32,000 nt of DNA from Nostoc punctiforme PCC 73102 (lineage in GTDB: Bacteria; Cyanobacteriota; Cyanobacteriia; Cyanobacteriales; Nostocaceae): NCBI RefSeq assembly GCF_000020025.1, contig NC_010628.1:4140001-4172000 (forward strand), read 5' to 3'. The notes under the pieces were generated by a model. It was not told where the DNA came from. It made no database searches and saw only the letters and a list, made by a program, of their open reading frames with translations. The position numbers were made by a program, and so were the translations under genes. How positions within the stretch are numbered: position 1 is the first letter of the stretch; each line of letters opens with the position of its first letter. Positions 4,627 through 24,544 of the stretch are shown here, in pieces.

Positions 4627-7563
4627 TCAATTTAAAGCTGTGTAGTCGCCATAAAGATTAAATCCTGCCCATAAGAAAAGGCTATCAGTATTTACATTGC
4701 AGTTAGGCAGACAGTTATTTAGGCAATCTAACTGAGTCCGATGCAAAGCTTCATCTCGTGGGAATTTATCTAAATAGTTGTAAAAACGGGTCATAAAAGA
4801 TACTGCGATTTTATCGTCTACCTTCCAAAGACAACCAAGAATGCTTTGAGTTCCAGACCGCCAGAGTGTTTCTGGTAAGCTGATAATCCAGCGACCAGGG
4901 AGGATAAAGTGATCTGCTGACCAACAGGAAGAGAGGGTTGCATGGCGCAAATTCGTTAAGTTCATTTCTGATAATTCTCTGAGGCTGAGAATCTCTTGTT
5001 CTTTATAATCAGAGATAAATACCAGTCCTGACTGGTCTGGTTGATTTAACTCAAAAGTGCCATGACAAGCAATATGAAGTAAGGTTACTTGAGATAAATT
5101 TTCAACAACAGTACTTTTAGAACTATTTACAAAAGAAAAGCGATGAATATGATTGCGATCTAGCCAGTCTTCTACCTGTTTTAGTTCTGGTTTAACTCCT
5201 TTTAGGAATGAAAATTGCTTGTTACCGTTAGACACGCCTACTACTAACGCTTTTTGTTTGGAAATAATTGAATTAGAAGGCGATCGCCTACCTTTGGACT
5301 CGTAAGCTATAGAAATGGCATAATGCTCAATTAAATACTTTTCTTTGTAGCGTATGGCGGCAAACGGAAAGCCATGCAAAATATCATCAGGTACAATTGT
5401 CAATGCCCGAATGTCTTTGGGTAAACCTTCTAGCAGCTTGGGAAATGCTAGCATTTCTGCAAGAGTTTTAGCTACTTCCTGCCCCACATTTGCTACCTCT
5501 GCCATCTCTTCTTCATATTCGCCCTGCCAATTCACATTCATATCTCGATGATAATTAATATCACGGTTGCTATCAATACTGTTGATTGGTTGGTCATAGA
5601 TATCTCGACCATTGTTAATATTCTTGATAAGTTTGTACCAGTGTTGTACCTGATTACGCACTTCCAAACGAGTAGTAAGAATAACATGAAAATCAAATAA
5701 AAATCGCCCTGTTTTCACAACTAAAACACGATCTGGCAGAATCAAAAATGAAAGAGTAATTCTGTCTTTTGGGTGAGTCAACAGCCGTAGCCACAATGAT
5801 GCAGGAGGTAAAAATGGAACTTTTATTCTGTCGCCTTTAATTGTACGTTTGGCTAATACATCCTTGTATCTGTCGATATGTTCCACTAAAGCATTCAGTT
5901 GTTGTATTAGCTGCAAGCGTTGCCAAAGAAAGAGCCAAAAAGCTCCCGTACTAACTTTTAGTTGCAAACGTTGCAACTGATTAATTTGTGCAGCAATGTA
6001 TTCCTCATCTGCTGTCCATTTATTCAACAGATAAAATACCTGGTCTTCTGGCGCAAGGGATGAGGTAATTTGTTCTAGTAAATAATTTGTTGATGCTGTT
6101 AAAGCTTCTATTTCCGGGAGTGGATAATTTAATCTAGTGCGACACCAAACTAATATCCTCTGTACCTGCCAAAGTTCTGGTCTTAAACCTATGTTCTGTA
6201 ATTGAGGATGAATTTCCTCCAAAATCTGATGTGCTTGATAAATTTTGGTCAAGTCACTGTTCTCTGTGCCTTCATAGTAAGCAAAAGTTCCTTCCAATAC
6301 CCGTATTTGTATTTTGATCAGGACCGAATCAGTACAATTGAATACCTTTTTTATGTGCTGGAGTAAATCGCCCGCAGTTTTCAGATTGAGGTTGCTCAAC
6401 TGCCATTGAAAGGCTAATGCGCGGTCTTCAAACCAAGTTAAATAATTGGAAGATTGAGTTGATAAGTCTAGTCTTGCTTCTACTTCTGCTACAGCTTGTT
6501 TATTATTTATTTTTTTATTCATTCCAAATACTGAGAGTTCCACAGGACTATTAACCACAAGGGAACGACTACGGGCATAGCATAGTTGCAATAATAAGTC
6601 TGCCCTTGCTGCTAAAGCTGCATCATCAATAGTAGAGGCATCGCTTTGGGTGTCCATTAAATAACTCTGAGCAGCACTGGTTTGGTTGAGAAAAATTAAG
6701 ATATGGGCAAGACTGAGGTTTGAACGCAACACCGCGCGTTGTGAACGAAGTTGACAGCATCTTTCTTGAACTTGTCGGAATTGTTTTAAACTAGTACCTA
6801 AATTTCCCAAAAGCAGATTGAGTTTACCAGATAGTTCCAACCAATGGATAAAATGTTCTGGATGCTGGGGTTGATTGAGTTGGCTTTCTAAATCGGAGAG
6901 ATAAGTCTGTGCATCCTCAAAATGTCCCTTTTCCTGGAGGACAGAGGCGATCGCCAACTTTAGTGGTAGTATAGTTTGCTGTGCTAAAGAAGATACTTTC
7001 TCTCCCTCAGCATGAAATAAACCCCGTTGCAAAGCAACAAGAGCCTCTCCGTATTGTCCCAAAGCAGCTAGCAATCGCCCCATCGCTAGGTATAATTCAG
7101 CAAATAAAACAGTCCGGTCTTCTGAGTCGGTATCATGCCAAAAACAACCCGCCTCCCACCGTAATAATCCTGGTAACACAAATTGAATATTATTAATGTC
7201 CCCAATGCGTGGAGCCATTTCTTGCAGTAAGTCTTGTGCTTGATCTAAAGTTCCTCTATCTATGCATAGTTGAATACGTCTTAGACAAGTATAATCAGCT
7301 AAACATTCATTCTTTGACTCCTTATATAAATCAACAGCTCCACAAAGCAAGTCATCAGCCGCTTGGAATTCACCCAATAAACCAGCTAAGTCTGCCAAGG
7401 ACTGGATAACTTTCAAATCTGCATCAACCAACCGGGAATATAAAAGGCGATGAGTAAAAATTTTGCATAAATCATCGTAAGCCCCTAGTAAATTGCCTTG
7501 AAGCCATTTTGTTTCGGCTAATTCAAAAGCAGTGTTGAGTTCAACAAAGGTATCGTATGGCAA
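4627..7563 (-). CDS. TPR-repeat / CHAT-domain (caspase-fold) protease, 978 aa
   Basis: The C-terminal ~300 aa has a CHAT-type His and Cys dyad context: VTLLHIACHGTFELNQPDQSGLVF and RHATLSSCWSADH. The N-terminal ~400 aa is helical-repeat/TPR-like (e.g. GRLLAALGQYGEALVALQRGL, LQEKGHFEDAQTYLSDL). No signal peptide. The ORF starts with TTG just after an in-frame stop. Confidence 0.8.
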   Translation of the reverse strand: MPYDTFVELNTAFELAETKWLQGNLLGAYDDLCKIFTHRLLYSRLVDADLKVIQSLADLAGLLGEFQAADDLLCGAVDLYKESKNECLADYTCLRRIQLCIDRGTLDQAQDLLQEMAPRIGDINNIQFVLPGLLRWEAGCFWHDTDSEDRTVLFAELYLAMGRLLAALGQYGEALVALQRGLFHAEGEKVSSLAQQTILPLKLAIASVLQEKGHFEDAQTYLSDLESQLNQPQHPEHFIHWLELSGKLNLLLGNLGTSLKQFRQVQERCCQLRSQRAVLRSNLSLAHILIFLNQTSAAQSYLMDTQSDASTIDDAALAARADLLLQLCYARSRSLVVNSPVELSVFGMNKKINNKQAVAEVEARLDLSTQSSNYLTWFEDRALAFQWQLSNLNLKTAGDLLQHIKKVFNCTDSVLIKIQIRVLEGTFAYYEGTENSDLTKIYQAHQILEEIHPQLQNIGLRPELWQVQRILVWCRTRLNYPLPEIEALTASTNYLLEQITSSLAPEDQVFYLLNKWTADEEYIAAQINQLQRLQLKVSTGAFWLFLWQRLQLIQQLNALVEHIDRYKDVLAKRTIKGDRIKVPFLPPASLWLRLLTHPKDRITLSFLILPDRVLVVKTGRFLFDFHVILTTRLEVRNQVQHWYKLIKNINNGRDIYDQPINSIDSNRDINYHRDMNVNWQGEYEEEMAEVANVGQEVAKTLAEMLAFPKLLEGLPKDIRALTIVPDDILHGFPFAAIRYKEKYLIEHYAISIAYESKGRRSPSNSIISKQKALVVGVSNGNKQFSFLKGVKPELKQVEDWLDRNHIHRFSFVNSSKSTVVENLSQVTLLHIACHGTFELNQPDQSGLVFISDYKEQEILSLRELSEMNLTNLRHATLSSCWSADHFILPGRWIISLPETLWRSGTQSILGCLWKVDDKIAVSFMTRFYNYLDKFPRDEALHRTQLDCLNNCLPNCNVNTDSLFLWAGFNLYGDYTALN

Positions 7564-7703
7564 ACTAACACCCCCTTAGATTTGAGATTTTGGATGAAAA
7601 ATCTAACATTCTGTAGAGACACTAACATATAACGTTTCTATAAGAATTTGGTTACACAAGAGGTGAATGGAAAATCAAAATATTCACCAAATTAAACAGT
7701 TAC

Positions 7704-10700
7704 TCAATTTTTTTCTGATGTGGTCACAACATAAACAGGTTTTTCTAGAGGACATTTGTTTGTATTCTGATTTTTATCTGATTCATCTTTTTCCTGGCAT
7801 CCATTGTTAGTAACAAAGCGTTGGGGATAATTTTGAAATTGGAATCTTAAGGAATCTCCAATGTTAGAAGCTGTAGTTTTAGTGGAAGGATTACTAGATA
7901 CGCTCACATCTCCCAACCCACTATGACGGATTTTAACTCTGCCTATTTCTCCGGGTTTGAGTTTATAGAATCTGGCTCCTGAACCAAAAGGAACACTTTG
8001 TTCAATCGACTGTTTAAATTGTAAATTGTTTAAACCAGGAGAATCTTGCACATAAATAAATTCTGTGTTGTTCTCTATGACTTTGAAGTTGCGATTATTA
8101 ATTTCATCAAAGAAATTTTGCTTAAACAGTTTCGCTCCTTCAGGAGTAATTCTTTCTACTTTTAGTCTACCTTCATACACATTCACCGCTGCTTTACGCA
8201 ATATCAGGTTCGGTTCTGAACCATGCAATTTGATTGATTCGTTAATTGATTTGGCAGCTCTAGTGTAATCCCCAGCTTTCAGTTCTCCATCAATTTTTTT
8301 GATTCGGAATTGTAAGTCTAGCTTCTGGCTTATAACATACTTAACTGGCTCTGCGGCGAGCTTCTGGGCTTCTTTGCGGTAATTATACGAACTTTTATAA
8401 TTTGCTCCTTTACCAGAAAGTTGTTGAAAACCCTGTGTTTGTTGTGAAACCTGCGCTTCATTTAAAGATTCAAAATTAAAATTACGGGCACCATCCTCTG
8501 GTTCAGCTACTGACATTATCCGTTTTGAAGGTGGTTTTGCACCACCTCCACTACCATCTGCTAAAGGCTGTTCACTAAATTTTAGCCATTTATTATTGGA
8601 CTTAGAAAGTTGAACAAAATAATCATTAGGTTGGGACGGAGAATACCTAACAAACACAACATCATCCATTTCCCTCAGAGCATTGAGAACACTCACTTTT
8701 TTTGGATTAAGGCGTGAAGTTCCTACGCTAAGGCGCGAAGCTAGGGAATATCCAGCATCTATATCTCGACTTTCAAAACCTACCTTAAAACCATTTGCCG
8801 TCTTGGAGATGTTCAGATTACCAAATTCAGTATCGCCGATGGCATTTTCTAGCTTTAGTCCATCGGGTATCTGCGTTACTTTGCTGCTAAATGGCTGATT
8901 TGTTAGTTCAACATTTGGACTGCGTAGTTTTGCTTCCGGTTTAGGTTCTACTATAGTTTCGCTAACAGTTTTACTTAGAGGTCTTACTCTGTATTTAGTA
9001 CCATCTAAAGTTTTAAATTCGAGTTTACCTCTTTGGAATTTTACAGACTTGTAGTCAATGTTAGACCTGCCGAGATTGCCTATTTTACTATCTTTAGGTA
9101 AAGAGATACGACCTTCAAAGTTTTTTCCGCCAGCCAGAGAAACCCCTCCATAAAGAGATGGATAGGGCTTCCCGTACTTCTTATCAATGTTTTCTGACTC
9201 TAAAAATTTCAATTTCTCTGTTTTTCTACCCTTATAGTTGTAGCCCTCAGAGAGAAATGTAATTGCGTCCCATTTTTTAAATTTCAAGCGTTCCCCTTGA
9301 GTTCCAACCCAATCTGGGAACCAGTTGTCTCGTTTAACTTTTACTGCTTGTAAAAAGCTCAAAGGATTGCTTTGTTCATACTGAAGGGAGAGTTCGTTTT
9401 GTTGGTGCTGATTGAGCCAATTAATTACTAAACTCCACTTCATAATTTGATTAAGCCGTTCATATTGTGGCTCATAGCGAGCAACTTCTTTATAGTGGTT
9501 GTTCCACCAGTTCAGAAAGGCAGCGGTATCTGGAGGCGCATTTGTTTCCTTGTTTGATTGAGGGCGGTCAGAAGAAGCAGCTTTGATCTGTGTGGCATTA
9601 GGAGCAAAAATAATATCCCTATTTTCATTTGCTACTTGAAATCCCTTGTCGTCTGGTTCAAGCCAAAGCCGAACATAGTTTGATTGTTTAAGTTCTGATT
9701 TATAAATTGGTGAAACAGCGATTCTGGTCTCTGGGTTAAAGCCTTCAATGTCAGTTTCTAGAGTAGCTTTTTGAAAGTTGAATTCCCAGATTTTCATCAA
9801 TAAGTCGGTATAGAACAGGGTCATTCCGACTTCCGTTCCTTGTAAACCCTCTTTTTTATCTTGCAAATTACCATTATATCGAGCTATCTGGAAACCATTT
9901 TTTTGTTGTGCGTTTAACAAATCATAAATTTCTTTCTTCTTGCTAGAAATTATTTCCTTCTTTTTCCAAGGTATTTCTTGTTCAAGATACTTTTCCCATT
10001 CGCTCTCCAACTTTTTTTGCTCGTGGTCTATGGCAATAATTTTTGCATGTATTTCTTCAGGAGATAAGCCAGATTCAAGTGCTTGCTGTATTTCTTTTTG
10101 AGATTGTTCTTTTGACTGCTTAATGCTCTGTTGACTTGCTTTATACTTTTTATCTTTATATATATTTAATTCCTTTTCAATTTCTGCTGCAAGTTTTTCT
10201 TTGCTAAATGCTTGATTTACAAGTTCTTCTGAACTCAAAAAATTTTCCAATTTAGCAATTAAATTGAAATAAGATTTTTTGTCTTGACGTAATAAACCCT
10301 GCTTTGCTTCTTGAATATCTTGGTCACTAATTATGAGTTTACCATCTAGTTTGAGTTTTTGGAGTAAAGGTTTTGCCTTCTCTAAAGCTTGTGCAATACG
10401 AGGATAGTCAAATTCCCAATCTAGAGAAAAGAGACTACCATTGATATTATTAAAATCTGACTGCCAAAGTGCTGCAATATCTTCTACGCGCAGACCTTGA
10501 TGTTTACGCTTATCTTTATCTTTATAAATCTTACGACCGCCCACATTCAAACTGGAACCATTAACTTGAGCAAAGGTAATATCATCAACCTGATTAAGGA
10601 AACTTTGCAGGTCATTCTGGCTGTTGATGGTGGTTTCAAAGTATCCGTAAGCACTACTAAAGATTTGTTCGCCGTTTATCGGCTCTTTTCTAGAAATAAC

Positions 10701-11231
10701 AGATGACTGCTTGTCAGGAGCAATTTCGTACTCAAATACCTCAATGATTTTAGGCTTTTCTCCTTGATCTTTGCGGTGACGATCAGCAATATGGGCAAGG
10801 TCATCCATACGCTGTTCTTTGGAAGCAGTGTTAGGCACTAGGGCAACTATTTTCCCATCACCGACATAGCGAGAGCGAGTGCTACCATACTCAAAATTGG
10901 CAACAGGACTTATAAAGTCATAGCGCACTGCTGGGAGGTCGTAGACACCCTGACTTATTTTTTCGGTGGAAAGCCCTTTGCCTGAAAGAGCAGTCATTAG
11001 TAACCAATCTCTTAATTGATCATCTTTTTGGCGTTTCGTCAACTTATAAAAGCCCTCATTCGGCTCAAAATTGACCGTCTGAGGTCGATTCAGGGGAAAG
11101 TTTTTGTCGGTTATGACTTCTATCGGTTGTACTACAGCTTGGGAAGCGCTGGTTTGGGCGTACACCATCCCCAAAGCTACAGGAGATGCAACAAGAACAG
11201 TGATACTCAACAAATCAATGATTTTTCTCAT
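7704..11231 (-). CDS. Large secreted protein of unknown function, 1175 aa
   Basis: The N-terminus MRKIIDLLSITVLVASPVALGMVYAQTSA looks like a Sec signal peptide. A central K/E/Q-rich coiled-coil-like stretch follows (...KQSKEQSQKEIQQALESGLSPEEIHAKIIAIDHEQKKLESEWEKYLEQE...). A strong RBS (AAGGAGGA) sits in the 19-nt spacer after the upstream gene's stop. I recognise no family. Confidence 0.75.
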   Translation of the reverse strand: MRKIIDLLSITVLVASPVALGMVYAQTSASQAVVQPIEVITDKNFPLNRPQTVNFEPNEGFYKLTKRQKDDQLRDWLLMTALSGKGLSTEKISQGVYDLPAVRYDFISPVANFEYGSTRSRYVGDGKIVALVPNTASKEQRMDDLAHIADRHRKDQGEKPKIIEVFEYEIAPDKQSSVISRKEPINGEQIFSSAYGYFETTINSQNDLQSFLNQVDDITFAQVNGSSLNVGGRKIYKDKDKRKHQGLRVEDIAALWQSDFNNINGSLFSLDWEFDYPRIAQALEKAKPLLQKLKLDGKLIISDQDIQEAKQGLLRQDKKSYFNLIAKLENFLSSEELVNQAFSKEKLAAEIEKELNIYKDKKYKASQQSIKQSKEQSQKEIQQALESGLSPEEIHAKIIAIDHEQKKLESEWEKYLEQEIPWKKKEIISSKKKEIYDLLNAQQKNGFQIARYNGNLQDKKEGLQGTEVGMTLFYTDLLMKIWEFNFQKATLETDIEGFNPETRIAVSPIYKSELKQSNYVRLWLEPDDKGFQVANENRDIIFAPNATQIKAASSDRPQSNKETNAPPDTAAFLNWWNNHYKEVARYEPQYERLNQIMKWSLVINWLNQHQQNELSLQYEQSNPLSFLQAVKVKRDNWFPDWVGTQGERLKFKKWDAITFLSEGYNYKGRKTEKLKFLESENIDKKYGKPYPSLYGGVSLAGGKNFEGRISLPKDSKIGNLGRSNIDYKSVKFQRGKLEFKTLDGTKYRVRPLSKTVSETIVEPKPEAKLRSPNVELTNQPFSSKVTQIPDGLKLENAIGDTEFGNLNISKTANGFKVGFESRDIDAGYSLASRLSVGTSRLNPKKVSVLNALREMDDVVFVRYSPSQPNDYFVQLSKSNNKWLKFSEQPLADGSGGGAKPPSKRIMSVAEPEDGARNFNFESLNEAQVSQQTQGFQQLSGKGANYKSSYNYRKEAQKLAAEPVKYVISQKLDLQFRIKKIDGELKAGDYTRAAKSINESIKLHGSEPNLILRKAAVNVYEGRLKVERITPEGAKLFKQNFFDEINNRNFKVIENNTEFIYVQDSPGLNNLQFKQSIEQSVPFGSGARFYKLKPGEIGRVKIRHSGLGDVSVSSNPSTKTTASNIGDSLRFQFQNYPQRFVTNNGCQEKDESDKNQNTNKCPLEKPVYVVTTSEKN

Positions 11232-11250
11232 GACTGATTCCTCCTTGCGT

Positions 11251-13155
11251 TTATGGTTTTTGTAATTGGCGATAGAGTTCTAAATAGTCCTCATTATCTT
11301 TTTTGAGTTGCTCCCCTGGTTGTCCAGCAACATATCGCACCAAGGATTCTTCATAGAGTTCCAGCACTCGTGACATCCGTTCATCTTTGCCAAGGATAGG
11401 TGCGTTATTAAAAAATTCTTTAGATGCTTTTAGCACTGCTTCATCATTCTGAACTTGCTTCGCCATCAGAATCATGTCATAAGCCTTTTGTCGTACTGCA
11501 AGCGTCGTCTGTTCTCGCATGACGATATAACCAGTCACAACTATCAATACACTTGCAACCATCGCTTGTAGCTTGATGCGCTTGTCTTGAGCACTGAAAA
11601 GCCACGGTAACAAAGGTTCTGTGCTGAGTCGAGGTTTTATAGATGCAGGTGTGAGGATAGGAGATGATTCTGAGTGTCCTGTAGGGGGTGTTACCAAGAC
11701 GCGATGTCTGGTGACAAACCCTTCCCCTCTGGTTTCATCTTCAAACAAACTATTTTCTAGATAGCCGCAGATAGGTGCAAAATCTAGTTCTGCCAAGTCT
11801 GGACTACTATCAACTACTACTTTCCAAACACTTGGTACATCTGCTTTTGTCTGAGGTGGATGTTGTAATACACTGTTAAGTGCCTCCCATAACTGGACTG
11901 CGATTTTGGTCGATTTGCTGGTAGATTTGATTGGCTTTGTTTTGCTATTAGGGGACTCCATCCAACCTTCACGAGGTTCTGATAGCCCAATGCTGTACCA
12001 AAGTTGAATTGCTTCTGCAATATAAAACACCCTTGTTGTTTCCTTGGCTTCATCTGAATCAATGTATGCATTCATCCATGCAAAACCTTTGTTGGCTCCT
12101 ATAAGCAGGGGATATCCATCCCAAGCGGATGGTACACCAGATTCCATCTCGTCTTGCAATCTGTTTTTCAAGTCCAGCAGTTCATTACGTGCTTTGTAAG
12201 CTTTTGCCAGATTGGGATTATAGGTAATTGCTTTTTGGACAGAGATGAAAGCATTAAACAATTGATGGCTACGTACCAAACTCACTGAATGCAAGTGATA
12301 TAAACTAGCCAAAAGTTGAAAAATTGTTAAGTTATAAGGATACTTTTTTAAAAATTTCCTTAACTCCCTAATTCCAGGTTGCAAATTCTTGGCGTTTTGG
12401 GCATACTGGTCTTTGGTTTCTGCATCCCAACACTTTGACAAAGTTTTTAAGTAGTAAATCTCTACTAGTTCACCTTGAAACTCAATATTATTCGGTAACC
12501 ATTTCAGCCGTTGCTCACAGCAATTAATCGCTTTGTGCCATTTTTTAGCTTCTTTATACACAGTAATTCGTGTCTGCCAAGCTTCTCCTAATAAATTTTT
12601 TACTTCTTGAGCAGATACAGGAGATAATTTCAATAGCTGCTGAATATAGTCGATATGAACAAATGCACGCTCTTTCCAAGACAGTTTTCTAGACTTTAAT
12701 ATCAATCCGTTGTAGAAAGCGCAGTGAGTGTTAATAAATAATTCATTCATTAAGTGCTGACGCAGTTTTACAGGATCGTTCATTATCTGAACACCAGGCT
12801 TATTGGCTACAATTAACGTAATTGTCTGCCATAAATCTGGCTTATTTAGTAAAGCCTTTAATTCAATTTGCATCTGATTCCAGAAAAAATCAGCCCTTTG
12901 CCACTTGGCAGCAATTTCTGCTTCTATTGCTAGTTTATGCTGAAGTAATAAATGCCCTAATTGACCTTTTAAATCTAACCCCAATTCAGTAAATTTCTGC
13001 CAAGTAGCGAAATCTTGGTTGGCAAGCTGTAACAGATTTTTCCCAGCTTGTTGGTCAGCAGTTAATTCTGTTTCCTCGGAACTCAGGTTATAAAGATTTG
13101 CTGAGATAACAGGGAATACTCGCTCTTGAGGACGACATAAAAGTGCTATCATCAT
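11251..13155 (-). CDS. Helical-repeat protein with a single C-proximal transmembrane helix, 634 aa, unknown function
   Basis: Long ORF with TPR-like helical segments (e.g. FISVQKAITYNPNLAKAYKARNELLDLKNRL). One hydrophobic segment, LQAMVASVLIVVTGYIVM, is preceded by basic residues (QDKRIK) and followed by a ~90-aa tail. The stop is 19 nt before the next gene's ATG, so they are probably co-translated. Confidence 0.7.
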   Translation of the reverse strand: MMIALLCRPQERVFPVISANLYNLSSEETELTADQQAGKNLLQLANQDFATWQKFTELGLDLKGQLGHLLLQHKLAIEAEIAAKWQRADFFWNQMQIELKALLNKPDLWQTITLIVANKPGVQIMNDPVKLRQHLMNELFINTHCAFYNGLILKSRKLSWKERAFVHIDYIQQLLKLSPVSAQEVKNLLGEAWQTRITVYKEAKKWHKAINCCEQRLKWLPNNIEFQGELVEIYYLKTLSKCWDAETKDQYAQNAKNLQPGIRELRKFLKKYPYNLTIFQLLASLYHLHSVSLVRSHQLFNAFISVQKAITYNPNLAKAYKARNELLDLKNRLQDEMESGVPSAWDGYPLLIGANKGFAWMNAYIDSDEAKETTRVFYIAEAIQLWYSIGLSEPREGWMESPNSKTKPIKSTSKSTKIAVQLWEALNSVLQHPPQTKADVPSVWKVVVDSSPDLAELDFAPICGYLENSLFEDETRGEGFVTRHRVLVTPPTGHSESSPILTPASIKPRLSTEPLLPWLFSAQDKRIKLQAMVASVLIVVTGYIVMREQTTLAVRQKAYDMILMAKQVQNDEAVLKASKEFFNNAPILGKDERMSRVLELYEESLVRYVAGQPGEQLKKDNEDYLELYRQLQKP

Positions 13156-15729: not shown

Positions 15730-15833
15730 TGTTTTATCCCTTATCAGTGTTTGTCAAAGTTGCAAAAAACCAGCATCCTCTACATTTATATGCAATACTT
15801 CAAGATTTAGAAGTACAACACTCGATAAACTAA

Positions 15834-16820: not shown

Positions 16821-16868
16821 TGCTTTTTCTCCTGATAAGCTCTTCTACATTTAATTCACACATACAAT

Positions 16869-17648: not shown

Positions 17649-17949
17649 CGCAAAATACCCCTTATTTGTGCATTTGCTATTTATTTTTAGTTATTCATTT
17701 AACTTTGATTGACAAAACTTTAACTATAAGTGTCTTCAAGACAATGACTATCCAAGCTAATTACTCCTCGCTTTTTTAGATTCCTATATCAGTCTCCAAA
17801 GATAGAGTGTAGTTTTATGCATATTGGAAAAAAATCTGAATATTTTTTCAGGTTGGAAAGACTCTTACCTTCTCACACCACATCCAAGCCACTTTTTCAT
17901 TCAAAATGAAAAGCTTAAGGAAGCAGTTGGCGAGGCTATTTGCTGATAT

Positions 17950-18115
17950 CTAACTTTTCCCGTTACTTTTAAGAGGATGCGATCGCTCCTGGAAGTGCTA
18001 TCTCAAAGTCCTATTCTCTCGTCGTTTATTGTCATTAACTCTCATGTATTGATAATATATGAGAGCTTAAAATCCTTACTATCTCAACCTTTTACGACTT
18101 AACGGGAAAAGTAAG
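17950..18115. mobile_element. 166-bp MITE-like element: 16-bp terminal inverted repeats, flanked by a perfect 10-bp direct repeat (target-site duplication)
   Basis: Left end CTAACTTTTCCCGTTA (17950-17965) matches the reverse complement of the right end, CTTACTTTTCCCGTTA (18100-18115), at 15/16 positions. TTGCTGATAT sits immediately outside both ends (17940-17949 and 18116-18125). No ORF inside. The element contains a HIP1 site (17979-17986) and an internal palindrome CTCTCAT...ATGAGAG. Confidence 0.65.
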
Positions 18116-18608
18116 TTGCTGATATAGCGGTTTTCAATAGGCGCAATACACTTTTTTTTACATCACCCCAGCCTTAGCAAGTAAGGTTACTGCTGGCGAA
18201 TGGTAGCTTTAACCCCTTATCCAAAAGATTTATATGCTTTTTGACACAACGCCAGGGGCGAGTAGGCGTAGTCTGTTGTAGACATCGCGTCCTGGAATAG
18301 CCTTAAAAAAGTTAATTTATCATTAACGATGGGTATAACCCCTAAATCGCTAGCAGTATCCATAACAAGAAGAAGAGTACTCGATAGGGTAAGGTAAGGT
18401 TTTGTAAGTCATGCAACTAAGAACTTATATATTTCTTACAGCAGTAGCTCTAATACCAGTTATCCTCCTTAATCCTCGGTTTATTTGAGAATATAATTTT
18501 TTTTGGGCTATTTTCCCGGTCTTTACAATATTTAACCTTATATATCCTCTTAATGCCTCGGTAAAGTGAGTAAACTGGAGGATAAACAGCCAAATTATTT
18601 GTTGATGA

Positions 18609-20927
18609 ATGTTGCCACATAGTTTTCTTACTCAAATGGCTTACGAGCATGAATTATCCCCAGAACAGCAGCAAGTTTTCTTGATGCGAATGGCGGATGA
18701 TTTAAGCTACGAACAAATAGCCACCCAATTGAGTACATCAGCAGATGCTTGTTTGAAACGTATGGGTCAGGTGTACAGGAAGTTCAATATTAGTGGCGTT
18801 AGTCGTGGTAAAGAAAATAAACTCAGATTTCTCCTGGCTAACAAGTTGGAACAGTCGCAACGGTTAGAGTCAAATGCTGAAGAGCCTTCAGATTATACCC
18901 AACCTGCTCATGTACCCGATTTAGAAACTGAACCCAATCTGGTAAATATCAGCCAAAAATACCTTATTTATCAAAACTTGCCAGCAAGAGAACATACAGC
19001 CTTTGTTGGTCGCGCCCAAGAAATCATGCGGCTAATGGAACTTTTGGATTTTCAGCACACCGCTCATTTAATCAGTGTGGATGGCATTGGTGGTGTAGGT
19101 AAAACTACTTTAGTCGTAGAAGTAGCTTATCGTTGCTTGGAAGTGAGCAATAACGAACATTTCGCTCCCAGCCTTCCCACCTTTGAAGCCATTATCTTTA
19201 CTTCCGCCAAACAGAATCATCTAACCTCTATTGGTATCTTGCCTCGATTAACTAGAGAACGTACTCTGTGGGATATTTGCAGGGAAATTGCTCGTGTCCT
19301 AGATCTCAGTGAAATCATTAATTTACCTTTAGAAGAACAATTCCAGCCAATTCGAGAGAAATTATCTCAAACAAAAACCTTATTAATTGTTGATAATTTA
19401 GAAACCATTGAAGACCAACAGGAAGTTCTGTCCTTTCTGTACGATTTACCACCAACGGTGAAAATTATTATCACTACTCGTGAACAAGCTTTGTTTGTAC
19501 CCATTCGCCTGGGTTGTCTACCTAAAGAAGATGCTTTGCGCCTCATCCAACATGAAGCCAAAGAAAAAAGTATAACTTTGACTACGAAAGAATCTCAGCA
19601 ACTTTTTGAGGGAGTAAGTGGAATACCTGCTGCAATTATTTATGCCGTTGGTCAGATGGCGGCGGGTTATTTACTGGAGGATGTGTTGGCACAAATCAAA
19701 GAACCTAACGGTGATGTTGCCCGTTTTTGTTTTGCAGGCTCGGTAATTCCCCTAAGAGGCACGCCCCCTTACTATTTGCTGATGGCAGTTTCACTAGGAG
19801 TAGAACCTATAACCAGAGAAGCTGCTGGCAGTATTGCTTTTGAGCAAGCTGACCCAATTGTTACAGCCCAAGGATTGGCGAAATTGCAGCAACTTTCCTT
19901 GGTTTATCAGCACCAAGGGCGCTACAACCTGCTTGAATTGACCCGCGAGTATTCTGCTGCTGAGTTAGCTGCGAATAGTGAATTGGCTCAAAAGTTACAA
20001 CAAAGATGGGTCAATTGGTATATCAAATTTTCGGAGGCTTACGGAGGCACGAATTGGAAGGAGTGGCATCTCGGCTATAGTTATTTAGAAGCTGAATGGG
20101 AAAATATCAGAGCCGTACTCGAATGGTGTATTAGTCAAGTAATGTACTGTGATGCGCGAACAATTTGGCAACAGATTAAGGGCTATATTCATGTGCGTGG
20201 ATACTGGGATGAACGTTTAGACTGGACAGCTTGGTTGATTGAAACTGCCAAACAAACTGGAGATTGGACTTTTGCAGTTGAGGTAATGAGCGATCGCGCT
20301 GGCACTTTGATTAGGATGCGCCAAGAGAGCCAGCTAAAAGAAGCAGAGATTTTGTTACAAGAAGCTTGGAATTTGCGCCACCATCAAAGTATAATCTTGC
20401 AGCTAGAGATAGCTACAAACATGGCTATTTTATATATTAATCAACAACAGTTTAAGCAAGCTCAGGAGTGGCTAACAGAAGAGGAAAAACTGTTAAAACA
20501 AGCATCGCTACCAGAGTTGAAAATAAAGGAACAACAAGTTCATATTATTTATTATCAAGGACAGATACATTTTCAATCTGGAGATTACCAGCAGGCTGAA
20601 AACGTTTTCCAGCAAGCATTAGCTGAAGCTCAACAAGCTGGATGGCAAAGAGCAGTCGTTGCTATTCAAAATTGGTTAGCAGATGTGGCTCTGAAATTAG
20701 GAAATTTAGAAGAAGCACGACGATTATTGGAATTAAGCTTTCCAATCGCAGAGAGACATAAAGATAAACGCTCTATTGCTTACCATAAGGCATCATTTGC
20801 TAAGCTGGAAAAACTATCAGGGAATTTACCTCAAGCTAAACGCTTGGCAGAAGAAGCATCGGATGGTTTTGAAAGTCTGAAGATGCTAACAGAAGCCAAA
20901 GAAATGCGTACTTTATTCTCCAGTTAA
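18609..20927 (+). CDS. STAND NTPase: N-terminal LuxR/sigma-region-4-like HTH + NB-ARC-type P-loop + C-terminal TPR array, 772 aa
   Basis: HTH-like segment: LSPEQQQVFLMRMADDLSYEQIATQLSTSADACLKRMGQVYRKF. Walker A ISVDGIGGVGKTTLV, Walker B KTLLIVDNLE, and a GLPL-like motif VSGIPAAIIY. The C-terminal third is TPR-like (GDYQQAENVFQQALAEAQQAG, GNLEEARRLLELSFPIAE). The start may instead be the second ATG at 18636 (MAYEHEL...). Confidence 0.8.
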   Translation: MLPHSFLTQMAYEHELSPEQQQVFLMRMADDLSYEQIATQLSTSADACLKRMGQVYRKFNISGVSRGKENKLRFLLANKLEQSQRLESNAEEPSDYTQPAHVPDLETEPNLVNISQKYLIYQNLPAREHTAFVGRAQEIMRLMELLDFQHTAHLISVDGIGGVGKTTLVVEVAYRCLEVSNNEHFAPSLPTFEAIIFTSAKQNHLTSIGILPRLTRERTLWDICREIARVLDLSEIINLPLEEQFQPIREKLSQTKTLLIVDNLETIEDQQEVLSFLYDLPPTVKIIITTREQALFVPIRLGCLPKEDALRLIQHEAKEKSITLTTKESQQLFEGVSGIPAAIIYAVGQMAAGYLLEDVLAQIKEPNGDVARFCFAGSVIPLRGTPPYYLLMAVSLGVEPITREAAGSIAFEQADPIVTAQGLAKLQQLSLVYQHQGRYNLLELTREYSAAELAANSELAQKLQQRWVNWYIKFSEAYGGTNWKEWHLGYSYLEAEWENIRAVLEWCISQVMYCDARTIWQQIKGYIHVRGYWDERLDWTAWLIETAKQTGDWTFAVEVMSDRAGTLIRMRQESQLKEAEILLQEAWNLRHHQSIILQLEIATNMAILYINQQQFKQAQEWLTEEEKLLKQASLPELKIKEQQVHIIYYQGQIHFQSGDYQQAENVFQQALAEAQQAGWQRAVVAIQNWLADVALKLGNLEEARRLLELSFPIAERHKDKRSIAYHKASFAKLEKLSGNLPQAKRLAEEASDGFESLKMLTEAKEMRTLFSS

Positions 20928-20941
20928 TACAAAATTGCATT

Positions 20942-21505
20942 TTATGATTGAATCATTGGAAGAGTTAAACAGGCACTTATTTGTAATAACTGATTATCCA
21001 GAGGTACTATCAGACAAGCTGTCCGCTGATATTGACTATCTTCTATGAAGCTGACAGCAAACAATTTTTCAAACAGGTATTTAGTTATTACTATAGCCTT
21101 TTTATAGTGTTGGTCTTGAAATTCTAGAGTTTCATCAACAGGAGAATAATGATGAAAAATATATCCATATAACTCCTGACAATCTTGAATGTATTTATAA
21201 GTATTTAACAGAATATGGGTGTGCCATACTTCATCAATCTCTTTGGTCGGAACTAATTCTATATCTGGGAATATAAAATGGAGGCACAAAAACATCTTAT
21301 AAAGACTGATTGCAGATTCAGTTTGTTGTAGTGTCCGTCCAGTTCCGTTATCATAACATATAAGTTTTTTAGCAATTGGCTGCCAATCCAATTTGTTTAA
21401 CTTATTGAAAAAGCTATAAATTTTTTCAGATAAACCTTGGTTAAGAACTTGCGAATTAGAAAGTGAATGTACATTTAGTGTTTCTTGATCCAAGCTTATA
21501 TTCAA
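20942..21505 (-). CDS. GRDP-like (DUF1399-type) protein, 187 aa
   Basis: Motif EIDEVWHTHILLNTYKYIQDCQELYGYIFHH fits the D-x-VWH-x-H-x-L...Y...C...YG core I recall for glycine-rich-domain-protein-like/DUF1399 proteins. Convergent with the STAND gene, with a 14-nt gap. Confidence 0.45.
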   Translation of the reverse strand: MNISLDQETLNVHSLSNSQVLNQGLSEKIYSFFNKLNKLDWQPIAKKLICYDNGTGRTLQQTESAISLYKMFLCLHFIFPDIELVPTKEIDEVWHTHILLNTYKYIQDCQELYGYIFHHYSPVDETLEFQDQHYKKAIVITKYLFEKLFAVSFIEDSQYQRTACLIVPLDNQLLQISACLTLPMIQS

Positions 21506-21951
21506 GCGACTACCTCCTTTGATAGGCTTTAGACTTTGTTAGTTACAGGGGAAACAACCTATTTTTGTCTGAGTTCCCTTATTACCCTCACAAGTCAGGA
21601 GGCAGTTTTATGCTTTTTGGCTAAAAATCTCAAGTTTTTTCAAAGAAATATTGAGAAACTGATTTTGGTAGGTAAAAATCGCTGAACTACTGGATAACAT
21701 GCTAGTCTATAGCTTCAATTTCTGATTTTAAGAAAATTTTATAAAGTTAGTCAGTAAAGTTTTGTAAAATTAGCGTCTTATAAGATAAAAATTACTCTTC
21801 TTTTGGGAGGTATTTATATAAAGTATGAAAATACCATTCCTTCTACTTTCTACCTTATTTCGTAGTCAATTATAGTGAGAACTATAATTTCTAACAACCC
21901 TATTTCATCCGTAAAACAAGATTTAGTTTTGTATTCACATAAAGAAAATAA

Positions 21952-22305
21952 TTGGCAACTAAAATGTTTATGCAAGAAGAAATTATCTCGATTGTTACCG
22001 ATAATGTTCAATTTCCAGCAGAAACAAGGAATTGGGAAGCTCCATCTGAAGGTGCTACTAAGTACAAAGTAGAGATTAGCGCCGATAAGTTAGAGCAAGA
22101 AATGGGTCGGTTTTTACAAATAGTAAGTCGTTTATTTAAACGTGCAGAGATAGAAACTGAAAAAAAACCTGGAATACACCTTGATGAAATTGAGCTATCA
22201 GTAGAAATTAATGGCGAAGGTAAGGTTAGCTTAATTGGAAGTGGTGCAAAAGCTGGTGGTAAAGCAGCAATAACCCTAAAGTTTAAACGAACCGAATTAG
22301 AGTGA
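21952..22305 (+). CDS. Small trypco2-like (trypsin-co-occurring domain 2 / CU044_2847-like) protein, 117 aa
   Basis: The C-terminal pattern HLDEIELSVEINGEGKVSLIGSGAKAGGKAAITLKFKR resembles the family hallmark (...EVEFGVKLTAEAG...AK.GGEA.LKVKLTW). Small size, and located 139 nt upstream of a CHAT protease gene. The real start may be ATG 21964. Confidence 0.55.
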   Translation: MATKMFMQEEIISIVTDNVQFPAETRNWEAPSEGATKYKVEISADKLEQEMGRFLQIVSRLFKRAEIETEKKPGIHLDEIELSVEINGEGKVSLIGSGAKAGGKAAITLKFKRTELE

Positions 22306-22444
22306 AATAGCAAATTTAAAACTAGTACCGTAAGGCGGAAGTCAAAATTCAAAATGACTATAAGATAAGCCTTTTGTTGATTTTTAATTTGTTTTTTATT
22401 TCTGGCACGCTGTACTAGCTGGTGTAATAGTAGGGATATTTTGT

Positions 22445-24544
22445 ATGTCACTGAGGTTTTTTTTAGTATGGTTTTTGTCCGCTACAGTTAACCTAAAAAA
22501 TATTCAGAAGCTTTTAAATTTTTTAGGAGGTCGCGTAGGCAGTAAAGCAATTGAGCTAGAAGTAGAAGTAAATGGCAAAAAGCTGAAAATACAATCTAGA
22601 AATCAGCAAGAGTTACTAGCGGCGATAGAAGCAACTAAAAAATTTGTCTGTACAGAAACAGTTTTGCCAGCAATACACCAGTTTCCAGAAGAAATATTCT
22701 TAAAGGTCATTACTAAATTAGAGACCGTACAAGAGTTAGAAAGAGCAAAATTTTTTGTTGAAGAAAATCGTAATAGTGGGTTATTCTTATCCGCAGATTT
22801 TTACGATATAGAACAACCATTACTACCAGCAGAAACACCACCACAGTCATCAACAAATTTATCACAACGAACAGGGCGTGGATTGAGACCGAAGCTGCCT
22901 AAATCAGAAAAAACCGAGCTAGACGCAACCAATTTCTATCACGAACCTCCACAGAATAGACCCCAAACTTCTTCAAGAAATATTCCTCCTGTTAATCAAC
23001 TCCAGACTCAACCAATAGATAATCATCAAGCTTTTCTGGAAGCTTCTTCACTGCTAATACGCTATCCTAATTTAGAATGTCTAAATCAAATTATCCTTAA
23101 CGAAAAGTTCAGCCTATTCGTCCAACTTTTGATCGAACAACCAAAGTCTAGTACTCAGGCTATCTATGTTGAGAATAGTTGTACTCCCGCACAATTGCCT
23201 GAGATAGAAGTAGTATTGCGTACTCCTCGCGGTTTTGATATTGAAGGCAACGATTATCAATTAATGCAAGTGAAACTTGACAGCGACTCTAGTGTAGAGT
23301 TTAACCTTACCGCTTGCAAACTTGGTGAGCAAGAAATCCGAGTAGATTTTTACCAATGCGATCGCCGTATTGGTACAGAAAGGTGCAGTGTACTAGTTGT
23401 GAAAGAGCCTTTAGATTACGATGTATCAAAACCAAAGGAAGTAACAAGCCTAGAGTTAAAAATAGCACCTATTGTCCCACCACCCGATTTGGAATTATGC
23501 ATTGAATTGCGCGATGATCGTACTCTCTACTTCACGTTGCATTCAAAAGTCGCAGGGTATCACCATGTCAAAGTTGGTGAATTAACCTTGAGAGGCTCAC
23601 CATTGGAGAAAATGCAGGCAGTATACAAGGAACTGGGAAGCTTAGCTGGCCCAATCAAGTCAACAGAAGAAGCTGCTGCCGAGCGGCGGTTGGCAACTTT
23701 CGGGCGTGAACTATGGGATCAACTAATTCCTGATAAATTGCAACAGGAGTATTGGCGCTTTAAATCCCTAATTTCATCTATTCTTATTACGTCTGATGAA
23801 CCTTGGGTACCGTGGGAAGTAATCAAGCCCTATCGTTATAACGAAGATGGAGAACGAGAAGACGAACCATTTTGGTGTCAGCAATTTGCTTTATCCCGTT
23901 GGTTATCAGGGCAAGGAGGCACAGTTGAAGAGTTACAAGTAGGTACGGTACGATCAATAGCTCCTACTCAAGTGAACCTGTCCGCAGTCCAGCAAGAGAT
24001 AACTTTTATCCAACAGTTACATAATTTGCGTTCAGATATCACTGTACTTGAGCCTTTTAGCACTTCTCAAGAAGTATTGGATTGGTTAGAAACCGGAAAA
24101 TTCTTTATGTTACACTTTGCCTGCCACGGTATGTTTGACGCTGCTTTGCCTAATAACTCTGCGATTAAGTTATCAGATGGTATTTTACGTCCTTCTGACA
24201 TTCGAGTCAGATTTGGTGGACGTAGACCACGCCCACTGCTTTTTATTAATGCTTGTCATGGAGGACGGTCAGAATTCAGCTTTACTGGTTTAGGTGGTTG
24301 GGCTGAACGGTTAGTGGCAGAGGCGCGTGTAGGTGTATTTGTCGGGGCTATGTGGGAAGTAAATGATGGACTAGCGTTAAGGTTTGCACAACGCTTCTAC
24401 ACAGGATTTTTAAAAAATAACGAGACTCTCGCTGAGGCATTTCGCCATGCTAGAGAAGAAATCCGCCAACTTGCACCCTACAATTCTACTTGGCTTGCAT
24501 ACTCGCTCTATGCCGACCCTCAGGGACGTGTAAATTTAAAGTAG
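22445..24544 (+). CDS. CHAT-domain (caspase-fold) protease with unassigned N-terminal and middle regions, 699 aa
   Basis: C-terminal CHAT dyad contexts: FFMLHFACHGMFDAALPNNSAIKLSDG and PLLFINACHGGRSEF. A P/Q/S-rich linker lies around residues 125-190. The N-terminal ~75 aa contains KAIELEVEVNGKKLKI, similar to the preceding small protein. Confidence 0.8.
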   Translation: MSLRFFLVWFLSATVNLKNIQKLLNFLGGRVGSKAIELEVEVNGKKLKIQSRNQQELLAAIEATKKFVCTETVLPAIHQFPEEIFLKVITKLETVQELERAKFFVEENRNSGLFLSADFYDIEQPLLPAETPPQSSTNLSQRTGRGLRPKLPKSEKTELDATNFYHEPPQNRPQTSSRNIPPVNQLQTQPIDNHQAFLEASSLLIRYPNLECLNQIILNEKFSLFVQLLIEQPKSSTQAIYVENSCTPAQLPEIEVVLRTPRGFDIEGNDYQLMQVKLDSDSSVEFNLTACKLGEQEIRVDFYQCDRRIGTERCSVLVVKEPLDYDVSKPKEVTSLELKIAPIVPPPDLELCIELRDDRTLYFTLHSKVAGYHHVKVGELTLRGSPLEKMQAVYKELGSLAGPIKSTEEAAAERRLATFGRELWDQLIPDKLQQEYWRFKSLISSILITSDEPWVPWEVIKPYRYNEDGEREDEPFWCQQFALSRWLSGQGGTVEELQVGTVRSIAPTQVNLSAVQQEITFIQQLHNLRSDITVLEPFSTSQEVLDWLETGKFFMLHFACHGMFDAALPNNSAIKLSDGILRPSDIRVRFGGRRPRPLLFINACHGGRSEFSFTGLGGWAERLVAEARVGVFVGAMWEVNDGLALRFAQRFYTGFLKNNETLAEAFRHAREEIRQLAPYNSTWLAYSLYADPQGRVNLK

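Follow-up and report, generated by a model that had tools for sequence, protein, structure and literature searches.

The window analysed here is the 32,000-nucleotide stretch of the Nostoc punctiforme PCC 73102 chromosome (8,234,322 bp) that covers positions 4,140,001 to 4,172,000 of contig NC_010628.1, and all coordinates below are counted from its first letter. It holds a 20-kb block of ten genes (4627–24544), the largest part of which is a minus-strand operon that brings together two caspase-fold proteases, an exported protein, a membrane adaptor and a sigma-like gene. The gene list was obtained by calling open reading frames (ORFs) and scanning the window ORFs with Pfam, NCBIfam and PADLOC. 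The ten block proteins were identified by exact sequence match as ACC81765–ACC81774; extrapolation from Npun_F3343, the locus tag of the Pepco gene, through the consecutive accessions would place the block at Npun_R3335 to Npun_F3344.

The block is a composite of three linked modules and no random assortment of cargo. Module A comprises six genes running from 17648 to 4627 on the minus strand [extracytoplasmic function (ECF)-sigma-like, DUF1822, orthocaspase, TPR–transmembrane (TM) adaptor, 1175-aa exported protein and TPR-CHAT]; module B, which adjoins module A in several genomes, consists of a helix–turn–helix (HTH)–NB-ARC–TPR STAND gene and a GRDP-like gene; module C consists of a Pepco gene and a 699-aa CHAT gene. 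The features of the block are as follows.

4627–7563, minus strand: TPR-CHAT cysteine protease, 978 aa, ACC81765 (Npun_R3335, inferred number); Pfam CHAT, E = 3.4e-72
7704–11231, minus strand: exported protein ('Giant'), 1175 aa, ACC81766; N-terminal signal peptide, no Pfam family
11251–13155, minus strand: helical-repeat membrane adaptor ('TM634'), 634 aa, ACC81767; one TM helix, residues 527–545
13135–13410, no strand: spacer between the orthocaspase and TM634 genes; carries the recombination junction seen in Cyanocohniella sp. LLY
13411–15729, minus strand: C14 orthocaspase, 772 aa, ACC81768; Pfam Peptidase_C14, E = 3e-25; C-terminal TM helix, residues 711–729
15834–16820, minus strand: DUF1822 protein, 328 aa, ACC81769; Pfam DUF1822, E = 3.9e-45
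16869–17648, minus strand: divergent ECF-type sigma-like protein, 259 aa, ACC81770; identified with a family profile; first gene of the operon
17779–17827, no strand: conserved intergenic segment, from a MAFFT alignment; candidate promoter/operator
17947–18116, no strand: insertion of ~170 bp resembling a miniature inverted-repeat transposable element (MITE); 16-nt terminal inverted repeats
18609–20927, plus strand: STAND NTPase, 772 aa, ACC81771; Sigma70_r4_2, NB-ARC and TPR
20942–21505, minus strand: GRDP-like protein, 187 aa, ACC81772; Pfam GRDP-like, E = 8.7e-5
21952–22305, plus strand: Pepco domain protein, Npun_F3343, ACC81773, 117 aa (TTG start) or 113 aa (ATG start); PF24393, E = 3.7e-28
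22445–24544, plus strand: CHAT protease, 699 aa, ACC81774; Pfam CHAT, E = 3.9e-17

A previous interpretation made from the letters alone (the sequence-only reading) had recognized, inside 20 kb, a pair of CHAT proteases, a C14 orthocaspase and a STAND NTPase of the NB-ARC/TPR type, and Pfam located all four and upheld the protease and STAND assignments. Its giant secreted protein and membrane-anchored helical-repeat protein correspond to the 1175-aa protein with its signal peptide and to the 634-aa protein with its single TM helix; of its DUF1822/sigma-like pair, the former is a clear family member and the latter was recognized by a family profile with weak but consistent matches. The small adaptor that it had called trypco2-like is in fact the Pepco protein. 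The scan against PADLOC-DB 2.0.0 that had been proposed gave generic caspase, generic TPR and partial BovA matches, and none for the adaptor, exported protein and TPR-CHAT taken together or for the DUF1822, sigma-like, GRDP and Pepco proteins. Rfam, tRNA and tandem-repeat scans of the window revealed neither a CRISPR array nor anything else of relevance, and the window ORFs of at least 80 aa contained no SAVED, cyclase or Cas domain.

Conservation and parts of the six-gene operon

The exported protein was used as the anchor of a neighbourhood survey because ±10 kb around its gene spans the entire minus-strand gene run. A profile-guided scan with one genome per species yielded 76 loci with an exported-protein homologue (designated by L and a number), and their six-frame ORFs were searched by phmmer with the window proteins. 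The six genes retain a colinear, single-strand arrangement in 12 further Nostocales loci (L005, L007–L012, L014–L018 and L022), with no detectable adaptor in L017, and the order persists where protein identity to the window falls to 41–72%. Because gene order is kept in many other genomes, the co-location lies far beyond chance, and homologues adjoin in other genomes in defined sub-modules, as the sequence-only reading had asked of the block. The proteases do not form three separate systems; the orthocaspase and the 978-aa TPR-CHAT belong to one conserved six-gene operon. It is very probable that module A forms one functional system with a phylum-spanning core.

This core is the trio of adaptor, exported protein and TPR-CHAT. 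When only loci with enough flank are counted, 56 of 68 have a close TPR-CHAT homologue 3' of the exported-protein gene and on its strand, and 40 of 69 have an adaptor homologue 5' of it (43 when a profile is used). Trio-bearing loci were found in Cyanobacteria, Acidobacteriota, Verrucomicrobiota, Gemmatimonadota, Bacteroidota, Planctomycetota, Myxococcota, Proteobacteria and Actinomycetota, so that the linkage spans at least nine phyla. Sigma-54 activators (FHA-GAF-AAA+) also turn up in 14 of these 76 loci, without a fixed position.

The exported protein, the adaptor and the specific CHAT clade are without a model in Pfam, NCBIfam and PADLOC, and a search of the three collections with the 1175-aa exported protein gave no match. 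Its homologues of similar length are many, and no Pfam family is found in any of them. A charged, then hydrophobic segment (signal or anchor) opens 108 of 109 full-length homologues, and an internal TM segment is present in 0 of 109. The AlphaFold2 model (mean predicted local distance difference test, pLDDT, 83.8; predicted template-modelling score, pTM, 0.82) returned no Foldseek match at E < 0.06 in the PDB or BFVD, and the family profile gave no match to PDB sequences. At 50% identity the family forms 980 clusters, 714 of them at E ≤ 1e-30, in a collection of 1.84 billion representatives. In all Nostocales comparisons divergence is greatest in the exported protein and the adaptor, the former being the most divergent of the cluster.

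The AlphaFold2 model of the adaptor (pLDDT 85.1), which had Foldseek matches to TPR proteins, consists of a TPR-like solenoid (residues ~30–470), a disordered linker, a long TM helix and a three-helix C-terminal domain. The C-terminal domain is predicted to lie outside the cytoplasm and the solenoid inside it. The single TM helix, located ~100 aa before the C-terminus, is kept across phyla, and conservation within the protein is highest in the C-terminal domain and in a juxtamembrane motif on the cytoplasmic side (EPf..Wl.S.qd.r.K.q). Short adaptors that retain only the TM helix and tail were found in nine loci (Calothrix, Rivularia, Cyanocohniella, Pyrinomonadaceae and an unclassified cyanobacterial metagenome-assembled genome, MAG). 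In a Candidatus Angelobacter MAG (L048, 6620–10720) the exported protein, from its residue ~43 onward, carries the TM helix and C-terminal domain of the adaptor at its N-terminus in place of the signal peptide; this fusion, a 'Rosetta stone', is an argument that the adaptor tail shares the extracytoplasmic compartment with the exported protein and touches it.

The 978-aa TPR-CHAT, encoded by the last gene of both the operon and the trio, shows weak N-terminal TPR matches in Pfam and has neither a TM segment nor a signal peptide. Its catalytic residues H834 and C880 form a dyad that is invariant in 44 of 44 aligned homologues. The orthocaspase is composed of a caspase domain (residues 6–284), a conserved middle domain of ~400 aa without a family and a C-terminal TM helix; its dyad (H87 and C148) is invariant in the aligned homologues, the PADLOC caspase model matched at E = 4.6e-40 and metacaspases were matched in the PDB. 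Residues 1–690 of this protein are kept beside the trio in Pleurocapsa, Bradyrhizobium and Mariniblastus (Planctomycetota) and residues 5–622 in Williamsia. The C-termini differ: most Nostocales have the TM tail, and an alpha/beta hydrolase (DUF7379) is found in Pleurocapsa and Bradyrhizobium.

The DUF1822 gene always follows the sigma-like gene in Nostocales loci, and we propose that its product is a partner or regulator of the sigma-like protein. The 259-aa sigma-like protein alone gave no Pfam match. A profile of its family matched region 2 of SigK (PDB entry 4nqw, E = 3e-4) and RpoE (PDB entry 2q1z, E = 7e-3), Sigma70_r2 was matched weakly by six of 14 family members, and plasmid homologues with 27–31% identity are annotated by PGAP as sigma-70 family factors; these weak but consistent matches point to an ECF sigma identity. 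A 13-aa insertion (INVKKIDNNEPRK, residues ~96–108) in the region-2-like segment was seen only in the window, L005, L009 and L022 copies. When the sigma-like and DUF1822 profiles were run against the 76 loci, no member was found outside the cyanobacterial loci.

Related triads occur on plasmids of Trichormus variabilis (sigma, DUF1822, CHAT), Aulosira (sigma-like, DUF1822-like, 1079-aa TPR protein) and Acaryochloris (sigma, small ORF, serine protease). They correspond to the neighbourhood catalogued in PMC8195603. On the chromosome of a Rivularia MAG (L011) a second sigma-like/DUF1822 pair directly follows the TPR-CHAT gene, and this triad ends in a CHAT-nSTAND1-WD40 protein. The orthocaspase, exported-protein and CHAT-nSTAND1-WD40 genes of this locus (7303–9565, 9989–13601 and 19359–22926) are each split into two ORFs, which could reflect frameshifts, long-read assembly errors or pseudogenization. 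In four Acidobacteriota loci (L028, L030, L031 and L034), each with a gene order of its own, the trio is accompanied by a caspase, a second TPR-CHAT, a sigma-like protein and a single-pass TM protein. A profile of their 200-aa sigma-like protein matched SigL (PDB entry 6dv9) over nearly its full length (E = 0.0016). The single-pass TM protein was considered as an anti-sigma factor and this assignment was rejected: the RsrA match (E = 0.49) is not significant and such a role would be read from architecture alone.

Further genes accompany the trio in other phyla. A TIR-DUF4384 gene lies directly 5' of a short adaptor in L019, L024 and L043, with a related fragment 5' of a full-length adaptor in L025, and a DUF4062 gene lies directly 3' of the CHAT gene in L027, L038, L040, L050 and L055. 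DUF4062 is reported to be a TIR-like NADase with a part in anti-phage defence (10.64898/2026.05.01.722283). Together with the caspase–alpha/beta-hydrolase fusions, these accessory genes favour a conflict or cell-death role over pure housekeeping.

Two loci were compared with the window at the nucleotide level. A Nostoc MAG (L005) is 93% identical over 4539–18346; the match ends at 4539, which sets the left boundary of the cluster ~90 nt past the stop codon of the 978-aa CHAT gene, beside an IS4 fragment. Cyanocohniella sp. LLY (L009) is 93.3% identical by local blastn over 13135–22615, that is from the adaptor start codon through the orthocaspase, DUF1822 and sigma-like genes, the MITE-bearing intergenic region and the STAND, GRDP and Pepco genes into the 699-aa CHAT gene, whereas its trio (with an adaptor of the short form) is only 67–69% identical, in fragments, over 4729–11285. 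Per-gene protein identities agree with this nucleotide junction. The step from 93% to ~67% therefore indicates that the trio was exchanged as a cassette, with the junction between the orthocaspase and adaptor genes, and a 9.5-kb stretch that is 93% identical between genera suggests recent transfer. The exported-protein gene is the fastest-evolving gene of the cluster, and the junction of the swapped cassette is sharp.

The divergent STAND gene and the Pepco/CHAT pair

The STAND NTPase was matched in Pfam by Sigma70_r4_2 (N-terminal HTH, E = 1.5e-8), NB-ARC (E = 1.4e-11), TPR_12 (E = 1.4e-10) and TPR_MalT (E = 2.5e-8). Its translation contains the P-loop GIGGVGKTT and the motif LLIVDNLE, so that an NB-ARC domain with Walker A and B motifs and C-terminal repeats is present. 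The N-terminal HTH was not among the features first listed for this protein, and it stands where a death-type effector or an effector-associated adaptor domain, neither of which was found, might have been expected. We take this N-terminus to resemble that of the MalT/AfsR-type STAND transcription regulators. Because of the HTH, a nucleotide-dependent transcriptional switch is more plausible than a death-effector scaffold.

The STAND gene and the GRDP-like gene, which is convergent with it, lie beside the operon and divergent from it in L007, L009, L015/L092 and L022/L093, and a STAND fragment stands at a contig end in L016; the two genes occur together in L007, L009, L015, L022, L091, L092 and L093. 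In Brunnivagina and Goleter they remain beside the operon at 77–79% identity. The complete ten-gene layout is also present in Trichormus sp. NMC-1 and in Cyanocohniella sp. LLY, where the locus is cut within the 699-aa CHAT gene, and near-consecutive accessions and locus tags point to the same layout in Desmonostoc muscorum CCALA 125. These copies are not independent, since they are 77–97% identical in the module B/C part. In Nostoc sp. 'Peltigera membranacea cyanobiont' 213 (L091) the genes for STAND, GRDP, Pepco and CHAT remain whole and adjoin ParA/ParB, and the operon has decayed, leaving (at 2771–4460) a sigma-like fragment of 128 aa directly against a caspase fragment of 460 aa; the sigma-like gene has lost its 3' portion and the caspase gene its start by deletion, together with the DUF1822 gene. 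Consecutive accessions suggest that the same four genes are contiguous in strain N6. A trypsin-like protease of Goleter apudmare (L092, 1192–2175) occupies the position and orientation of the Pepco/CHAT pair; it was considered as an effector swap and set aside, because it has a signal peptide and is probably an unrelated secreted protease.

In the intergenic region between the sigma-like and STAND genes, the segment 17779–17827 (…ATTCCTATATCAGTCTCCAAAGATAGAGTGTAGTTTTATGCATATTGG…), ~130–180 nt 5' of the sigma-like gene, could be aligned with MAFFT in L007 and L015, whose proteins flanking it are only 57–79% identical to the window proteins. This conservation marks it as a candidate for the promoter or operator of the six genes, and another conserved patch is found just 5' of the STAND start (about 18540–18608). 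The same divergent promoter region contains the MITE, whose inverted repeats (17950–17965 and 18100–18115) are 94% complementary and of which copies with 71–74% identity occur in unannotated DNA of ten Nostoc and Calothrix plasmids; the insertion is shared with Cyanocohniella (L009) and is not found in L007 or L015.

In module C the Pepco domain (PF24393, 98.7 bits against a cut-off of 27) covers residues 29–113 of 117, and the gene is separated from the CHAT gene on the same strand by 139 nt. Pepco is directly 5' of the 699-aa CHAT gene in L009, L083, L091 and L093. The L083 copy, with a 73% identical CHAT orthologue, lies on a plasmid-like contig with partition genes and no STAND gene; more distant CHAT homologues (L085 and L087) have no adjacent Pepco. 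The 699-aa CHAT protein is built of a variable N-terminal part of ~200 aa and a constant C-terminal module of ~500 aa: homologues retain the C-terminal ~70% at 50–65% identity, and their N-termini are swapped for pentapeptide, kinase, zinc-ribbon or DUF7363 domains. Of its catalytic residues H561 and C604, the His is present in 87 of 88 and the Cys in 87 of 87 aligned sequences.

Pepco–protease pairs have been described as protease-licensed beta-barrel pore toxins, as shown with the trypsin-type Avs4; Pepco associates with proteases of the serine or cysteine class, and in the tested example cleavage occurs after a conserved Ile (Evans et al., 2025; 10.1101/2025.11.14.688446). Module C belongs to this known kind, here with a cysteine protease: a Pepco protein of ~117 aa is encoded directly 5' of a protease fused to a variable domain, and the family is common in cyanobacteria. 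By analogy, the Pepco protein of the window is predicted to be a protease-activated pore-forming effector. It differs from the tested module in that a CHAT cysteine protease without a fused STAND takes the place of trypsin-like Avs4, and in that the Pepco domain reaches almost to the C-terminus, where the reported Ile cannot be mapped confidently. Membership of the 699-aa CHAT protein in Borvo (BovA, a single-gene CHAT defence system) was rejected, as the BovA match (E = 2.4e-6) spans the CHAT domain only (~135 residues of a 711-position model) and the protein, unlike BovA, is paired with Pepco and has another N-terminus. Residues 36–44 of the CHAT protein (IELEVEVNG, 22550–22576) resemble residues 80–88 of Pepco (IELSVEING, 22189–22215), and the CHAT segment is kept in orthologues with a Pepco neighbour (BLASTP E = 0.03, single comparison). 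This likeness might represent a docking strand or chance, and is given as a lead, not as evidence.

A possible outside-in cascade and competing explanations

From the observed gene content, linkage, predicted topology, intact active sites and modular exchange, a wiring was derived that supplies the contacts, the cleavage events, the nature of the signal and the biological role. The exported 1175-aa protein would reside outside the cytoplasm, docked on the small C-terminal domain of the adaptor, and the cytoplasmic TPR solenoid and juxtamembrane motif of the adaptor would engage the soluble TPR-CHAT. An extracytoplasmic cue at the exported protein would switch on the TPR-CHAT as the initiator, which would cleave the membrane-anchored orthocaspase (the executioner), the DUF1822/sigma-like pair, or both. 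Cleavage would release a transcriptional response, and high activity would lead to growth arrest or cell death. Module B would serve as an NTP-dependent transcriptional switch for the divergent operon, and module C would act independently, its CHAT protease licensing the Pepco beta-barrel pore. We assign a probability of about 0.45 to this full wiring. We judge conflict or programmed cell death to be the most likely role. The sequence-only reading had proposed such a role for the whole block; the TIR-DUF4384, DUF4062 and caspase–hydrolase genes fit it, whereas the STAND protein carries an HTH and no death effector.

The closest experimental precedent for the logic proposed for module A is the type III-B CRISPR–CBASS hybrid of Haliangium ochraceum, in which SAVED-CHAT cleaves and activates PCaspase, and PCaspase cleaves a sigma factor (PCc-sigma), with abortive infection as the outcome (10.1101/2023.06.23.546230). 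As in module A, a CHAT protein, a C14 caspase and a sigma-like gene stand in one cluster. Module A differs in having no SAVED, cyclase or CRISPR–Cas component, in that its CHAT protein has TPRs and comes with a membrane adaptor and an exported protein, and in that DUF1822 replaces PCi and PCk; the order of the cascade is here a proposal. Craspase, as outlined in the same report, pairs the type III-E TPR-CHAT Csx29 with Csx30, Csx31 and CASP-sigma, and the protease frees an ECF-type sigma factor from its partner; by genes, module A shares with it only the TPR-CHAT architecture and has no Cas7-11/gRAMP, CRISPR array, Csx30 or Csx31. No sequence relation was detected between the 978-aa CHAT protein and the solved CHAT structures, the Csx29 chains included. 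CalpL/CalpT/CalpS, as summarized there, is a further case of a protease freeing a sigma factor (10.1101/2023.06.23.546230). A neighbourhood of EACC2-caspase, ECF sigma and DUF1822 with a variable caspase C-terminus has been catalogued (PMC8195603), and module A likewise has sigma-like, DUF1822 and caspase genes in one operon and a variable caspase C-terminus. Here, however, the caspase is without EACC2 and the triad is joined to the trio, which is absent from the description of that neighbourhood.

Several observations weigh against the proposed wiring. The orthocaspase does not carry the N-terminal EACC2 domain: its caspase domain begins at residue 6, and the preceding gene stops 104 nt short of the start codon, which leaves no space for such a domain. 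The profile matches behind the sigma assignment are weak, and hhalign found no relation between the cyanobacterial and acidobacterial sigma-like families. A sensor role for the exported protein is a guess, with no recognizable domain behind it, and the short adaptors, which have no cytoplasmic solenoid, complicate a simple relay. In Geobacteraceae (L054, L056, L059, L062, L063, L066 and L070) shorter exported-protein homologues of 770–900 aa stand alone with no adjacent CHAT or adaptor gene; these are the main exceptions to the trio linkage. The STAND gene is absent from six other Nostocales loci with the operon and sufficient flank, and its paralogues with 43% identity stand alone in unrelated contexts, including plasmids. 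A scan for promoter and terminator consensus sequences was uninformative (promoter-like sites: 58 found, 59 expected; terminator-like sites: 12 found, 13 expected), and a search of open-access text and supplements with the inferred Npun locus tags found nothing.

The same wiring might instead serve envelope-stress or cell-surface signalling in which an ECF-type sigma factor is freed for adaptive or developmental regulation, with no immunity or death involved. In the FecA/FecR/FecI and RseA/DegS/RseP systems an extracytoplasmic protein and a single-pass membrane protein control an ECF sigma output, and the outside-in logic of module A, with its exported protein, single-pass adaptor, ECF-like sigma and partner protein, is of this type; the sigma and single-pass TM proteins of Acidobacteriota look like a classic pair, and the cluster is chromosomal, vertically retained across Nostocales and without a PADLOC model for the trio. 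The proteases of module A are nevertheless cytoplasmic caspase-fold enzymes and not site-1/site-2 proteases, no homology to FecR, RseA or a TonB-dependent transducer is present, and in most phyla no sigma gene accompanies the trio, most non-cyanobacterial trio loci having neither the sigma-like nor the DUF1822 gene. There the accessory genes are those typical of conflict and death systems, and the patchy phylum distribution, the cassette-swapped trio and the fast-evolving exported protein also speak against a purely regulatory function, which we regard as unlikely, though a serious candidate. Another proposal makes the exported protein the payload (a secreted toxin, adhesin or surface structure), with the CHAT protein and adaptor serving its maturation, export control or self-protection. 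It is large, exported, fast-evolving and of no known fold, and in one genome it is fused to the adaptor tail, yet the CHAT protein, which has neither a TM segment nor a signal peptide, cannot act on a protein once it has been exported; no conserved secretion-system genes lie nearby, the accessory genes encode cytoplasmic death effectors, and Pfam, PADLOC and NCBIfam detected no toxin or adhesin domain, so that this proposal is highly implausible.

Two further explanations concern the block as a whole. The STAND NTPase could be a master sensor that, once activated, turns on the protease modules on either side of it as a single NTP-dependent conflict system, of a type known from catalogues of multicellular bacteria, for which the ten-gene layout in N. 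punctiforme, Trichormus sp. NMC-1 and Cyanocohniella sp. LLY (and presumably D. muscorum), the retention of STAND and GRDP beside the operon in Brunnivagina and Goleter, and the persistence of STAND, GRDP, Pepco and CHAT after operon decay in strain 213 (and presumably in N6) can be cited. This is quite unlikely: the STAND N-terminus is a DNA-binding HTH and not an adaptor domain common to the proteases, the operon stands without STAND in the six Nostocales loci and Pepco with CHAT does so in L083, Goleter has no Pepco and CHAT, the STAND paralogues have no protease neighbours, and most of the ten-gene examples are more than 90% identical in the module B/C part and do not count as independent. 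Alternatively, three or more independent protease-based abortive-infection systems and a STAND gene might have been gathered by mobile elements into a defence island with no functional link between them. Module C does travel alone (L083, with partition genes and neither STAND nor operon) and persists beside the decayed operon in L091; insertion sequence (IS) elements, the MITE, a MobV relaxase and a VirB4-like gene surround the block in this strain, and the 9.5-kb stretch at 93% identity between genera suggests recent transfer. Against an unlinked assembly stand the colinear operon that holds both the orthocaspase and the 978-aa CHAT at identities down to 41–72%, the trio linkage in at least nine phyla, and the same-family caspase found beside the trio in distant phyla despite rearrangement; the locus is chromosomal and conjugation genes are neighbours in 0 of the 76 related loci. 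A defence island of this kind is thus decidedly unlikely, and the outside-in cascade remains the reading that we prefer.

With regard to novelty, the sigma/DUF1822/caspase part and the Pepco/CHAT part are of known kinds. Of the gene combinations that the sequence-only reading did not know as characterized systems, the Pepco module is of an experimentally characterized type and the sigma/DUF1822/caspase unit has been catalogued; the trio, like its joining to the caspase–sigma unit, appears undescribed in the open-access literature, although survey supplementary tables may contain it. A broader and doubtful suggestion, offered tentatively, is that the trio represents an unrecognized multi-phylum receptor class in which an external cue fires a caspase-type cascade (CHAT, then orthocaspase, TIR or NADase effectors and sigma) and the exported protein is a rapidly diversifying sensor of new fold; such a class would parallel, in prokaryotes, death-receptor ('extrinsic') apoptosis signalling. 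In the bacterial immune and death pathways of the caspase fold known so far, the trigger comes from within the cell [for example SAVED-CHAT/PCaspase, Craspase, TIR-caspase (10.1101/2024.10.24.620036) and Pepco/Avs]. If the outside-in cascade is correct, bacteria would couple envelope events (adsorption of a phage, attack by a competitor, damage or contact with kin) to reprogramming or death by proteolysis, and a function would be provided for DUF1822 and for a family of about 1000 clusters at 50% identity. The system lies in Nostoc punctiforme ATCC 29133, which is a genetically tractable model strain, and the hypothesis is therefore directly testable.

Flanking mobile elements

The conjugation genes and IS/MITE elements that the sequence-only reading had placed around the block are all present. 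On the left, a distant VirB4/TraC-like ATPase is encoded at 560–3115, and an IS4-family transposase split into two ORFs of 233 and 173 aa (3180–4442) lies directly at the cluster boundary. On the right, a MobV relaxase (25421–26923, NCBIfam E = 3.8e-47) fused to a C-terminal DUF3991 is followed by an IS701 transposase (28700–30010). The MobV and VirB4/TraC-like genes suggest a degraded mobilizable element integrated in the chromosome. Because the locus is chromosomal and VirB4-like or MobV neighbours occur in 0 of the 76 loci, 'conjugative cargo' describes the context of this strain and not that of the system; of the mobile island proposed earlier, parts seem to have been exchanged horizontally, and the conjugative setting does not carry over to related loci. 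A PLSDB megablast search for a near-identical plasmid copy of the block gave only IS and MITE fragments.

Two short repeats at and after the 3' end of the 699-aa CHAT gene (24417–24544 and 24703–24824) recur at 88–94% identity in unannotated DNA of Nostoc plasmids and probably mark the right edge of the conserved block. A tandem repeat of the hexanucleotide ATTGTT (9.3 copies, 649–705) lies within the 3' part of the VirB4-like ORF. Between the relaxase and IS701, positions 27587–28003 encode a four-helix-bundle protein that Pfam assigns (E = 8.3e-25) to the '23S rRNA intervening sequence protein' family and a homologue of which is encoded near a STAND paralogue on plasmid p057_I of Nostoc sp. 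C057 (L081).

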